Positions 11,959 to 50,920 of a stretch of DNA of 64,000 bases are shown one piece after another. The notes beneath the pieces were generated by a model. It saw nothing but the letters and a program-made list of their open reading frames with translations, was not told where the DNA came from and did not search any database. The stretch is taken from the NCBI RefSeq assembly GCF_003334405.1, contig NZ_QOWM01000010.1. One strand, written 5' to 3'. Position numbers and translations under genes: made by a program. The stretch is from Escherichia coli. Its GTDB lineage: Bacteria; Pseudomonadota; Gammaproteobacteria; Enterobacterales; Enterobacteriaceae. The number at the start of each line of letters is the position of its first letter. Within the stretch, counting starts at the first letter, position 1.

Positions 11959-14463
11959 ATGTCACAAACTATCGACCTGACCCTGGACGGCCTGTCCTGC
12001 GGTCACTGCGTTAAACGCGTGAAAGAAAGTCTTGAACAGCGTCCGGATGTTGAGCAGGCGGATGTGTCTATCACTGAAGCGCACGTTACCGGGACTGCCA
12101 GTGCAGAACAGCTGATCGAAACCATCAAACAAGCGGGTTATGACGCATCTGTAAGCCACCCAAAGGCTAAACCGCTGGCGGAGTCATCAATCCCGTCGGA
12201 AGCACTGACAGCGGTTTCTGAGGCGCTTCCGGCAGCGACCGCCGATGACGATGACAGCCAGCAGTTGCTGCTGAGCGGCATGAGCTGCGCCAGCTGTGTC
12301 ACCCGCGTACAAAATGCGCTGCAAAGCGTACCGGGCGTCACTCAGGCACGGGTAAACCTGGCGGAGCGTACTGCGCTGGTGATGGGCAGTGCCTCCCCAC
12401 AAGATTTAGTGCAGGCGGTGGAAAAAGCGGGCTACGGCGCGGAAGCGATTGAAGATGACGCTAAACGCCGCGAGCGCCAGCAAGAAACCGCCGTCGCTAC
12501 GATGAAGCGCTTCCGCTGGCAGGCAATTGTCGCACTGGCGGTGGGTATCCCGGTGATGGTCTGGGGGATGATCGGCGATAACATGATGGTCACCGCTGAC
12601 AACCGCAGCCTGTGGTTGGTTATCGGCCTGATAACCCTGGCAGTGATGGTTTTCGCCGGCGGCCATTTTTACCGCAGTGCATGGAAAAGCCTGCTGAACG
12701 GTGCGGCGACGATGGATACGCTGGTGGCGCTGGGTACTGGCGTGGCGTGGCTCTATTCGATGAGCGTCAACCTGTGGCCGCAGTGGTTCCCGATGGAAGC
12801 GCGACATCTTTATTACGAAGCCAGCGCGATGATTATCGGTCTGATCAATCTCGGCCATATGCTGGAAGCGCGCGCACGCCAGCGTTCTTCTAAGGCGCTG
12901 GAAAAGTTACTCGATTTAACCCCGCCGACGGCACGCCTGGTTACTGACGAAGGTGAAAAAAGCGTGCCTCTGGCAGAAGTGCAGCCAGGTATGTTGCTGC
13001 GCCTGACGACCGGCGATCGCGTGCCGGTAGATGGCGAGATTACCCAGGGCGAAGCATGGCTGGATGAAGCGATGCTGACGGGCGAACCAATCCCGCAGCA
13101 AAAAGGCGAAGGCGATAGCGTCCATGCCGGGACAGTGGTACAGGACGGCAGTGTGCTGTTTCGTGCCAGTGCGGTTGGCAGCCATACTACGCTGTCACGA
13201 ATCATTCGCATGGTGCGCCAGGCCCAGAGCAGCAAGCCAGAAATCGGTCAGCTGGCGGATAAAATCTCAGCCGTATTTGTGCCGGTAGTGGTGGTTATTG
13301 CGCTTGTCAGTGCGGCAATCTGGTATTTCTTTGGTCCGGCACCGCAGATTGTCTATACCCTGGTGATTGCCACCACGGTACTGATTATTGCCTGTCCGTG
13401 TGCGCTGGGGCTGGCGACGCCGATGTCGATTATTTCCGGCGTCGGGCGGGCGGCTGAGTTTGGCGTGCTGGTGCGGGACGCTGACGCGCTGCAACGCGCC
13501 AGTACACTCGACACTGTAGTGTTCGATAAAACCGGGACGCTGACTGAAGGGAAGCCGCAGGTTGTCGCAGTGAAAACATTTGCTGATGTTGATGAAGCGC
13601 AGGCATTGCGTCTGGCGGCGGCACTGGAGCAAGGTTCCAGCCATCCGCTGGCACGAGCGATCCTCGATAAAGCAGGTGATATGCAGCTACCGCAGGTCAA
13701 CGGTTTCCGCACATTGCGCGGGCTGGGCGTGAGCGGTGAAGCTGAAGGTCATGCGTTATTGCTGGGCAATCAGGCGCTGTTAAATGAGCAACAGGTTGGT
13801 ACCAAAGCTATCGAAGCGGAGATTACTGCTCAGGCATCGCAAGGGGCAACGCCTGTGCTGCTGGCGGTTGACGGGAAAGCGGTAGCCCTGCTGGCAGTAC
13901 GCGATCCGTTGCGTAGTGATAGCGTGGCGGCGCTGCAACGCCTGCATAAAGCGGGATATCGTCTGGTGATGTTGACCGGGGATAACCCAACCACCGCCAA
14001 TGCGATCGCCAAAGAAGCAGGGATTGATGAGGTGATCGCCGGGGTGCTGCCGGACGGTAAAGCCGAAGCGATCAAACATCTGCAAAGTGAAGGACGTCAG
14101 GTGGCAATGGTGGGCGACGGCATTAACGACGCGCCAGCGCTGGCTCAGGCGGATGTCGGCATTGCGATGGGTGGCGGCAGTGATGTTGCCATTGAAACCG
14201 CGGCGATTACCCTGATGCGCCATAGCCTGATGGGCGTTGCGGATGCGCTCGCTATTTCCCGCGCAACGCTGCACAACATGAAGCAGAACCTGCTCGGTGC
14301 GTTTATCTACAACAGTATCGGTATTCCGGTCGCCGCCGGTATTTTGTGGCCGTTCACTGGAACACTGCTTAACCCGGTAGTTGCCGGAGCGGCAATGGCG
14401 CTCTCGTCGATTACCGTAGTGAGTAACGCCAACCGGTTGCTGCGGTTTAAACCGAAGGAATAA
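11959..14463 (+). CDS. copA: Cu(I)-exporting P1B-type ATPase, 834 aa
   Basis: ORF track 834 aa; two N-terminal metal-binding domains (CGHC, CASC), the CPC motif in [12 protein letters not shown], phosphorylation site DKTGTLT and the hinge [12 protein letters not shown]. Confidence 0.97.
12159..12170 (+). other. Programmed -1 ribosomal frameshift site in copA (slippery heptamer C CCA AAG, then a stop in the -1 frame)
   Basis: Heptamer cccaaag at 12159..12165 lies in-frame at codons 68-69; the -1 frame reads CCC AAA GGC TAA, predicting a 70-aa product that contains only the first metal-binding domain. Confidence 0.75.
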
Positions 14464-14469
14464 GTACAT

Positions 14470-14760
<291 letters not shown>

Positions 14761-14778
14761 TGAAGCGATGTTTTGGCC

Positions 14779-15120
14779 TTACGCGACCTTTTTTGCACGC
14801 TCTTCACGGCGTGCCAAATATTCAGCCACTGTTTCAATCCGTCCCAATTCTTCCTGGGTGCGCATGTTGTTTTCAACTTCCCAAAGATCAACCGCCGCCT
14901 GGAGGTTTAGCCAAAAATCGACTGTGGTATCAAAAACTTTCGCCAGACGAAATGCCATCTCAGTAGTGAGTTTACGATTGTTATTGATCAGTGCACTGAC
15001 GCTATTACGATGAACATGCAGCAACTCTGCTAACTCATTGATTTTCAAATCGAGCGGTTCCAGATATTCATAGAGAAGAATAGCTCCGGGTGTCGTCGGT
15101 TTTCTTGTTGCCTGTTTCAT
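14779..15120 (-). CDS. ybaQ: XRE-family helix-turn-helix protein, HigA-like antitoxin homolog, 113 aa
   Basis: ORF track 14779..15174; trimmed to the ATG at 15120 (MKQATRKPTTPGAILLYEYLEP...). HTH segment INELAELLHVHRNSVSALINN. No toxin-like ORF adjacent. Confidence 0.85.
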   Translation of the reverse strand: MKQATRKPTTPGAILLYEYLEPLDLKINELAELLHVHRNSVSALINNNRKLTTEMAFRLAKVFDTTVDFWLNLQAAVDLWEVENNMRTQEELGRIETVAEYLARREERAKKVA

Positions 15121-15257
15121 GGTTTTTAACTGTTGCTTCCTTGTGAATAGCGATGCAAGAACATACTGAATCATACAAACACATTAAACAAGTCTCCAAC
15201 TCCATTTGCGCCATCCCTCACCGCGCGCTAGCATGATATTTCACAAAGGGAGGTCGT

Positions 15258-16052
15258 ATGGATCTGTTGTACCGGGTAAAAACGCTTTGGGCCGCGCTGC
15301 GCGGTAATCATTACACCTGGCCTGCCATCGATATCACCCTCCCCGGCAATCGCCATTTTCATCTGATTGGCAGTATTCATATGGGTAGCCACGATATGGC
15401 TCCCCTGCCCACCCGTTTGCTCAAAAAGCTCAAAAACGCCGATGCGCTGATCGTCGAGGCGGATGTTTCCACCAGCGATACGCCTTTTGCTAATTTGCCT
15501 GCCTGCGAGGCGCTGGAAGAGCGCATTAGCGAGGAGCAACTCCAAAACCTGCAGCACATTAGCCAGGAGATGGGCATTTCTCCCTCACTCTTTTCTACCC
15601 AACCGCTGTGGCAAATCGCGATGGTTCTTCAGGCGACGCAGGCACAAAAACTGGGGCTGCGGGCAGAATACGGTATCGATTACCAGCTATTGCAGGCGGC
15701 GAAGCAACAACATAAACCCGTGATTGAACTGGAAGGGGCTGAAAACCAGATTGCCATGTTGCTCCAGCTCCCTGACAAAGGACTGGCGCTGCTGGACGAT
15801 ACGCTGACCCACTGGCATACCAACGCACGGTTGCTGCAACAAATGATGAGCTGGTGGCTGAATGCACCGCCGCAAAATAATGATATAACGCTGCCCAATA
15901 CGTTCAGTCAGTCGCTGTACGATGTGCTGATGCATCAGCGAAATCTCGCCTGGCGGGATAAATTACGCGCCATGCCGCCGGGGCGATATGTGGTCGCGGT
16001 CGGTGCACTACACCTGTATGGAGAAGGGAATTTGCCGCAAATGTTGCGCTAA
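15258..16052 (+). CDS. ybaP: TraB/GumN-family protein, 264 aa
   Basis: ORF track 264 aa; family assignment from memory of the K-12 annotation, not from an identifiable motif in the sequence. Confidence 0.88.
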   Translation: MDLLYRVKTLWAALRGNHYTWPAIDITLPGNRHFHLIGSIHMGSHDMAPLPTRLLKKLKNADALIVEADVSTSDTPFANLPACEALEERISEEQLQNLQHISQEMGISPSLFSTQPLWQIAMVLQATQAQKLGLRAEYGIDYQLLQAAKQQHKPVIELEGAENQIAMLLQLPDKGLALLDDTLTHWHTNARLLQQMMSWWLNAPPQNNDITLPNTFSQSLYDVLMHQRNLAWRDKLRAMPPGRYVVAVGALHLYGEGNLPQMLR

Positions 16053-16134
16053 AAAAATGGCCAATATCGCTATTGGCCCGTCAAAGAGGAATTTCATTTT
16101 TTTATTATTATGCCGTCACTTTAAGCGACGGTGT
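16051..16134 (-). ncRNA. chiX: Hfq-dependent small RNA ChiX (also called MicM/SroB)
   Basis: Reverse complement of 16051..16134 reads ACACCGTCGCTTAAAGTGACGGCATAATAATAAAAAAATGAAATTCCTCTTTGACGGGCCAATAGCGATATTGGCCATTTTTTT, matching my memory of ChiX, with an intrinsic terminator hairpin (GGCCAATAGCGATATTGGCC) and U-tract. Confidence 0.85.
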
Positions 16135-50808: not shown

Positions 50809-50920
50809 GAAATGAAAAACGAGAAAGAGAGCAGGAAGTTAAGAAGTTTGAAAATGAAAACGCACTATGACAGTGCACAGTGCGTTACATTTTTGCACCA
50901 ACGATGAAATATTGCGCTAT

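Follow-up and report, generated by a model that had tools for sequence, protein, structure and literature searches.

The ybaQ gene in the Escherichia coli window analysed here (the whole stretch of 64,000 nucleotides) is most probably the antitoxin/repressor half of a once-complete HigB-1/YbaQ type II module at the copA-ybaP locus, the toxin block of which has since been replaced; we put the probability of this reading at about 0.85. We propose that, in the K-12-like lineage, a 409-bp block of operator-promoter, toxin gene and spacer was probably swapped for an unrelated 76 bp, which would have left the antitoxin gene intact and under new expression signals. The orphan status of ybaQ and its origin are already published. 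YbaQ was called a solitary antitoxin in 2007 by RASTA-Bacteria (PMC2374986), and its partner higB-1 and its essentiality were reported in 2020-21, so the discovery value of the present analysis is small. Rousset et al. (2020) described the higB-1 toxin upstream of ybaQ and found by CRISPRi that ybaQ is essential in five of 18 strains, namely those of phylogroups B2 and F with an intact higB-1 (bioRxiv 10.1101/2020.05.25.114553). In the same work, knock-down of ybaQ de-repressed higB-1 in strain S88, the YbaQ ChIP-exo motif was present in the higB-1 promoter, and higB-1 was missing in most phylogroups, including K-12, with both genes lost in phylogroup D; the authors suggested from the conservation of orphan ybaQ that it has another function (bioRxiv 10.1101/2020.05.25.114553). 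Added here are allele counts in 5,426 complete genomes, dN/dS for the orphan ybaQ, and the finding that 409 bp, operator and ribosome-binding site included, gave way to 76 bp. Further additions are an operator consensus shared by several genera, repeated decay of the toxin gene to a pseudogene in other species, a D6-like phage-plasmid relative of the module, and a rare D13A change in the window copy. The features of the locus are listed in Table 1.

Table 1. Features of the ybaQ locus, in positions of the 64-kb window
Feature	Position	Strand	Basis or remark
copA, convergent neighbour	11959..14463	+	ORF list, annotation
REP/BIME array, 3' of ybaQ	14470..14760	.	Tandem Repeats Finder, Rfam naRNA4
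ybaQ CDS, HigA-family XRE antitoxin/repressor	14779..15120	-	113 aa (113 codons) + stop; ORF list and translation
C-terminal RAKKVA, ClpXP signal C-motif 2	14782..14799	-	Sequence and published list
Helix-turn-helix DNA-binding domain	14911..15075	-	Residues 16-70, PF01381
Codon 13, GCT (Ala), GAT (Asp) in K-12	15082..15084	-	SNP at 15083
76-nt segment in place of 409 nt	15121..15196	-	Allele alignment
Candidate ybaQ promoter, TGGAGA, 17 nt, TATGAT	15170..15198	-	Consensus scan, 9/12 matches
ybaP-proximal intergenic segment, common to all alleles	15197..15257	.	61 nt, single mismatch to toxin-bearing allele
ybaP (TraB/GumN family), divergent neighbour	15258..16052	+	ORF list, annotation

Profile searches demonstrated that YbaQ matches TIGR02607, "HigA family addiction module antitoxin", with 103.3 bits against a cut-off of 47.7, over positions 2-80 of the 81 in the model. 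Its helix-turn-helix is of the XRE/Cro-C1 type and aligns with Pfam HTH_3 over the full length of the model (positions 1-55, E = 1.6e-10). The first-pass annotation had recognised an XRE/HigA-type helix-turn-helix in the 113-aa product, which these matches bear out, placing YbaQ within the HigA clade. The K-12 counterpart, at the same coordinates, carries the RefSeq label "ybaQ: HigA family addiction module antitoxin", and the structure entry PDB 2EBY, "Putative HTH-type transcriptional regulator ybaQ", is the window protein apart from one residue difference. A longer ORF of 131 codons was rejected as the reading of ybaQ, because all homologues start with MKQATRKP and the sequence upstream of that start is without conservation. 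PADLOC defence-system models gave no match for YbaQ or HigB-1.

By sequence, YbaQ shares the helix-turn-helix fold family of the HigA structures PDB 3TRB, 3CEC, 2ICT, 4MCX and 6CHV (E values from 4e-13 to 1e-5), and an N-terminal PG(E/D) motif is common to YbaQ and the structurally characterised HigA antitoxins. However, the identity of these antitoxins to YbaQ is low, and their partner toxins, where known, are encoded adjacent to them. The window protein ends in RAKKVA and so carries C-motif 2; YbaQ is listed with this tail among the ClpXP C-motif-2 substrates in Table 2 of PMC9775585, and RAKKVA has been employed as a degradation tag (PMC2907309). Judged from the sequence, its retention in YbaQ would fit the lability expected of an antitoxin.

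Within the window, YbaQ is without a partner. A tblastn search with the cognate HigB-1 toxin found nothing in the 64 kb, and an HMM made from 11 intact toxin homologues gave no match over the same 64-kb window. Run in six frames over 14380-15300 with filters off, this HMM returned negative bit scores in the frames reported and no remnant, compared to 56-175 bits in positive controls on intact, and even disrupted, toxin genes elsewhere. The window thus holds no complete type II toxin-antitoxin operon, with neither a toxin nor a detectable remnant of one. These results agree with the earlier view that ybaQ has no toxin ORF on either side, its flanks being the BIME array and the divergent ybaP, and the six-frame HMM search that the first-pass annotation had proposed for HigB/RelE remnants uncovered neither partner nor remnant in the flanks. 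That annotation had further expected a toxin at the BIME position, which proved wrong, as other strains have the toxin upstream of ybaQ, on the ybaP side. Its description of ybaQ as an orphan HigA antitoxin gene with no adjacent toxin therefore stands, whereas the BIME side as the site of the toxin has to be given up on the synteny across E. coli.

On the 3' side of ybaQ, the BIME array shows a period of 101 nt at 14520-14757, with 2.4 copies and 97% matches (Tandem Repeats Finder). Its units match Rfam naRNA4 (RF02564) with 89 and 80 bits, on both strands, and its copy number differs between strains. Beyond the other flank, the small RNA sroB (ChiX) lies between ybaP and ybaK at 16051-16134 on the minus strand (82 bits against a gathering score of 44).

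A search with the region 14380-15400 against 5,426 complete E. coli genomes revealed three main locus states. In the first (e.g. NZ_CP070115, L001), the gene of a 100-aa "RelE/ParE family toxin" lies between ybaQ and ybaP, 35 nt upstream of the ybaQ start and in the usual higB-higA order, and the BIME array is absent, as it is from the ybaQ-less allele L002. The toxin matches the entire Pfam model PF05015 (HigB-like_toxin) with 109.8 bits, which settled its family, the NCBIfam models giving only sub-threshold RelE/YoeB matches. The second state is the window allele, in which ybaQ stands without the toxin, and the third has neither gene. The toxin gene was found as a single chromosomal copy in 1,266 of the 5,426 genomes, ybaQ in 4,834, and the 76-nt segment of the toxin-less allele, also single-copy, in 3,567. 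The allele counts agree with each other, since 4,834 minus 1,266 gives 3,568. In shares, about 23% of the genomes possess the complete pair, about 66% an orphan ybaQ and about 11% (~592 genomes) neither gene.

Compared to the HigB-1/YbaQ pair of B2 and F strains, the window gene occupies the same locus, with the same neighbours copA and ybaP, and encodes the same antitoxin save for the D13A change; YbaQ of L001 and of K-12 share one RefSeq protein accession. By contrast, the window has neither the toxin gene nor the operator-promoter nor the spacer, in which the ribosome-binding site lies; it has the 76 nt in their place and the BIME array downstream. A position immediately downstream of a PF05015 toxin gene, which ybaQ does not have in the window, is what it shows in 1,266 other E. 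coli genomes.

Two further sequences were noted at this locus. In E. coli UID2309220007 (L003:1585-1975), a fourth allele has ybaQ replaced by a G+C-rich insert of ~350 nt that contains long inverted repeats. Beside ybaP, this allele retains about 17 nt of the 76-nt segment, copA is annotated with a longer C-terminus, and Rfam at gathering thresholds found only sroB in L003 and nothing in the insert. Strain HS-02 (L024:1500-1820) was considered as an intermediate allele, with a partial toxin of 88% identity, and was rejected for its homopolymer-filled sequence; the toxin region consists of long homopolymer runs annotated as a hypothetical protein and resembles an artefact of assembly.

With one genome scanned per bacterial species, 17 loci of the ybaQ family were obtained. 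Three of them, from Escherichia genomes that are deeply diverged (ybaP dS 0.22-0.29), have the copA-ybaQ-ybaP arrangement and are toxin-less as well. At all 14 loci outside copA-ybaP, a HigB-1 homologue is encoded directly upstream of the antitoxin; they belong to Trabulsiella, Citrobacter, Enterobacter, Kluyvera, Sodalis, Erwinia, E. albertii, two Escherichia sp. and a Caldilineaceae MAG. This pairing bears on the possibility that YbaQ is an XRE regulator which merely resembles HigA and never belonged to a toxin-antitoxin module, for which the absence of a toxin in the window speaks, and nothing else. Against it, the same protein is encoded beside an intact HigB-like toxin in the 1,266 genomes above, its homologues at other loci are paired without exception, and ybaQ is essential where the toxin is present (bioRxiv 10.1101/2020.05.25.114553). 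We regard a never-paired YbaQ as refuted by the toxin-bearing E. coli alleles together with the pairing at other loci, and leave it a negligible chance.

The paired loci also show toxin decay beside an intact antitoxin. At four of the 14, a stop, frameshift or truncation disrupts the toxin gene, and the antitoxin gene is intact. In Citrobacter portucalensis (L007:3679-3981), the HigB-1 homologue has a stop at codon 24 next to an intact antitoxin; the other disrupted homologues with intact antitoxins are those of C. koseri (L011:3600-3925), Enterobacter sp. Bisph1 (L012:3653-3945) and Escherichia sp. ESNIH1 (L013:2382-2690). E. coli NC101 (L026:701-1002) likewise has a frameshifted toxin, annotated as a pseudogene, adjacent to an intact antitoxin. 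In the ybaQ-less L002, the last 21 nt of ybaQ are fused to 32 nt of the 76-nt segment; as it holds part of this segment, this allele was derived from the toxin-less one by a second deletion. Because three deeply diverged Escherichia also have the toxin-less allele, how many events took place, and in which direction, is judged by parsimony rather than from a reconstructed tree.

Allele alignment showed that the 409 nt of the toxin-bearing allele consist of the operator-promoter, the higB-1 toxin gene and the spacer, and that the replaced segment ends on the right where the ybaP-proximal segment common to all alleles begins. Aligned locally with the 409-nt block and with 13 other toxin loci, the 76 nt scored no higher than shuffled controls. 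Since the 76 nt have no similarity to the 409 nt, the change was a replacement and not a simple deletion. Two candidate relics within the 76 nt were rejected: a match to the 3' end of the toxin gene (GGAGACTTGTTT against GAAGAATTGTTT) was no better than with shuffled sequence, and a likeness to the higB-1 promoter, seen by eye, failed in local alignment against the shuffled controls.

To the replaced block belongs a conserved element of ~30 nt upstream of the toxin gene. Alignment of 14 Enterobacterales loci, namely the B2-type L001 of E. coli and the 13 loci outside copA-ybaP that do not come from the MAG, revealed 18 invariant columns in the pattern tGCACTTGnGCACnGTGCa-N4-GTGC-N2-TA within unconserved surroundings, and the sequence tGCACTTGnGCACnGTGC is conserved in all 14 of these paired loci. 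The element holds GCAC/GTGC half-sites and overlaps -35-like and -10-like hexamers, and from the sequence we infer it to be the operator for the antitoxin. In the 64-kb window, this operator has no match allowing up to three mismatches, and there is no inverted repeat upstream of ybaQ. The palindromic operator by which the antitoxin would repress its own operon is thus absent from the window. A lone exact GCACAGTGC operator core at 50875-50883, in the mdlB-glnK spacer, was dismissed, as one occurrence compares with about two expected by chance.

The signals for translation and transcription of ybaQ differ as well. The ybaQ ATG of the paired allele is preceded, at 7 nt, by an AAAGG ribosome-binding site, whereas no Shine-Dalgarno sequence stands at normal spacing before this ATG in the window allele. 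The -10 hexamer of the candidate promoter is retained in three of four toxin-less Escherichia alleles. As both the operator-promoter and the ribosome-binding site have been replaced, ybaQ now depends on other expression signals, and the ancestral site of autoregulation is gone. We propose that YbaQ is probably still produced from a promoter within the 76 bp, suggested by a consensus match, and may still adopt the XRE helix-turn-helix fold and bind DNA, with a preference for sites of the GCAC-N-GTGC type. It would also still be turned over by ClpXP via its RAKKVA tail. An orphan YbaQ of this kind would lack both a target toxin and, in cis, its ancestral operator, and the gene would persist under purifying selection for a residual function.

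The selection on ybaQ was assessed from substitutions. Among toxin-less ybaQ alleles, dN/dS is 0.09-0.11, compared to 0.05-0.07 for the neighbouring ybaP, on small counts of two to five non-synonymous changes. Between the K-12 gene and the B2-type allele there are four differences, all synonymous. These patterns point to a continued purifying selection on the orphan ybaQ. They also weigh on the proposal that ybaQ is a non-functional relic heading for loss, kept by chance or recent descent. A relic would account for the independent losses, as in L002 with its last 21 nt of ybaQ and L003 with a different insert, for the ybaQ frameshift in Escherichia sp. E1V33 and for the D13A change at an invariant residue in the window copy. 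Nevertheless, of the 4,834 ybaQ copies, 4,831 match over almost their whole length with at least 95% identity, the four synonymous changes between K-12 and B2 come with zero amino-acid differences, and dN/dS stays at about 0.1 across lineages whose neighbouring-gene dS exceeds 0.2, which makes a relic improbable. For the preferred reading, that of an antitoxin retained after replacement of its toxin block, the loss of ybaQ in 11% of genomes and the frameshift in E1V33 are points against, as are the lack of similarity between the 76 nt and the lost block, the toxin-less allele in the three diverged Escherichia, the missing Shine-Dalgarno sequence and a promoter known from a consensus match.

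In Escherichia sp. E1V33 (L009:4001-4360, L010:3627-4340), the orphan ybaQ at copA-ybaP is frameshifted near codon 93. This genome contains a second pair elsewhere, which is complete, 78% identical, and nearly the same as the pairs of E. albertii and of D6-like plasmids.

D13A is the sole difference between the window and K-12 across 1,542 nt of this locus. It occurs in none of the 5,426 complete E. coli genomes, where the best gene match is 99.7%, and the exact A13 protein is recorded from seven draft contigs, compared to at least 1,000 records for the D13 form. Residue 13 is Asp in 18 of 18 YbaQ-family sequences, and Glu, within a PGE motif, takes its place in distant HigA proteins. The whole window aligns collinearly and without indels with E. 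coli K-12 AG100; there are 16 single-base differences (13 transitions and three transversions), and the window therefore comes from a very close relative of K-12.

The residual function might be that of an ordinary regulator, in which YbaQ would have been domesticated as a stand-alone transcription factor with chromosomal targets of its own. YbaQ bound DNA in vivo in K-12 by ChIP-exo, from which a motif was derived (Gao et al. 2018, PMC6237786). K-12 and the toxin-bearing B2 strains share one and the same YbaQ sequence, and the dN/dS of about 0.1 would also be in keeping with such a role. The first-pass annotation had put forward both this role and the neutralisation of a toxin encoded elsewhere, and either might apply. 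On the other hand, the cited literature gives no YbaQ regulon or phenotype, K-12 can do without the gene, ~11% of genomes have lost it, and the 64-kb window has no operator-like site except the one chance-level 9-mer. We consider domestication a possibility to be held tentatively, with the odds clearly against it.

A relative of the module was found on phage-plasmids. The toxin of phage D6 (orf70/orf71 module) is 80% identical to HigB-1 and its antitoxin 74% identical to YbaQ, and the promoter of D6-like modules has the same operator core (ATGCACTTGCGCACAGTGCA). The identity between the plasmid antitoxin and YbaQ is higher over the N-terminal part, and the C-terminal 20 residues differ. Unlike the window locus, orf70/orf71 has both partners and is borne by a mobile element. 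The module recurs, with at least 90% DNA identity to the L025 pair, on about 76 E. coli plasmids of ~90 kb, and D6-like modules are present in 1.4% of complete E. coli genomes; L027, the plasmid examined in detail, has phage tail genes. In D6-like elements (phage D6, L029:1501-2628; L025; L027; L028), the pair adjoins tail and baseplate genes. Just downstream of the D6 pair lies a second HigA-family gene (orf72).

Solitary chromosomal antitoxins have been proposed as anti-addiction modules, an example being the chromosomal ccd of Erwinia chrysanthemi. Like YbaQ, these are chromosomal homologues of a module on mobile elements, although cross-protection by YbaQ is hypothetical. Under such a scheme, the orphan YbaQ would be kept for protection in trans, neutralising or repressing the HigB-1-like modules of mobile elements, notably of D6-like phage-plasmids. 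The likeness of toxin, antitoxin and operator just described and the purifying selection on orphan ybaQ would suit this role. In addition, at most two of 63 plasmid-borne copies share a genome with the chromosomal higB-1, compared to 14.7 expected, a deficit confounded by phylogeny, as phylogroup structure alone could explain it. However, the divergent C-terminal 20 residues and the rarity of such elements among complete genomes speak against protection in trans, as does the persistence of D6-like elements in A and B1 hosts, e.g. O111, O45 and ST167. These hosts presumably carry the orphan ybaQ allele, judging from known serotypes and sequence types, and the persistence of the elements there suggests that their module is not disabled. 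Altogether, protection in trans appears unlikely, though we would give it some weight, and it is quite unlikely that cross-reaction with the HigB-1-like addiction module of D6-type elements in particular is what retained the toxin-less ybaQ in two-thirds of E. coli.

The locus offers a natural series for the fate of an antitoxin after toxin loss, from the complete pair through a frameshifted toxin and the replacement of toxin and operator to the loss of both genes. The link to D6-like phage-plasmids provides a concrete, testable reason for the conservation of orphan ybaQ. If YbaQ protects in trans, post-segregational killing by D6-like elements would be blunted; if cross-reaction with the D6-type module has maintained ybaQ, the gene would confer a chromosomal immunity to post-segregational killing, or may influence which hosts D6-type elements can occupy.
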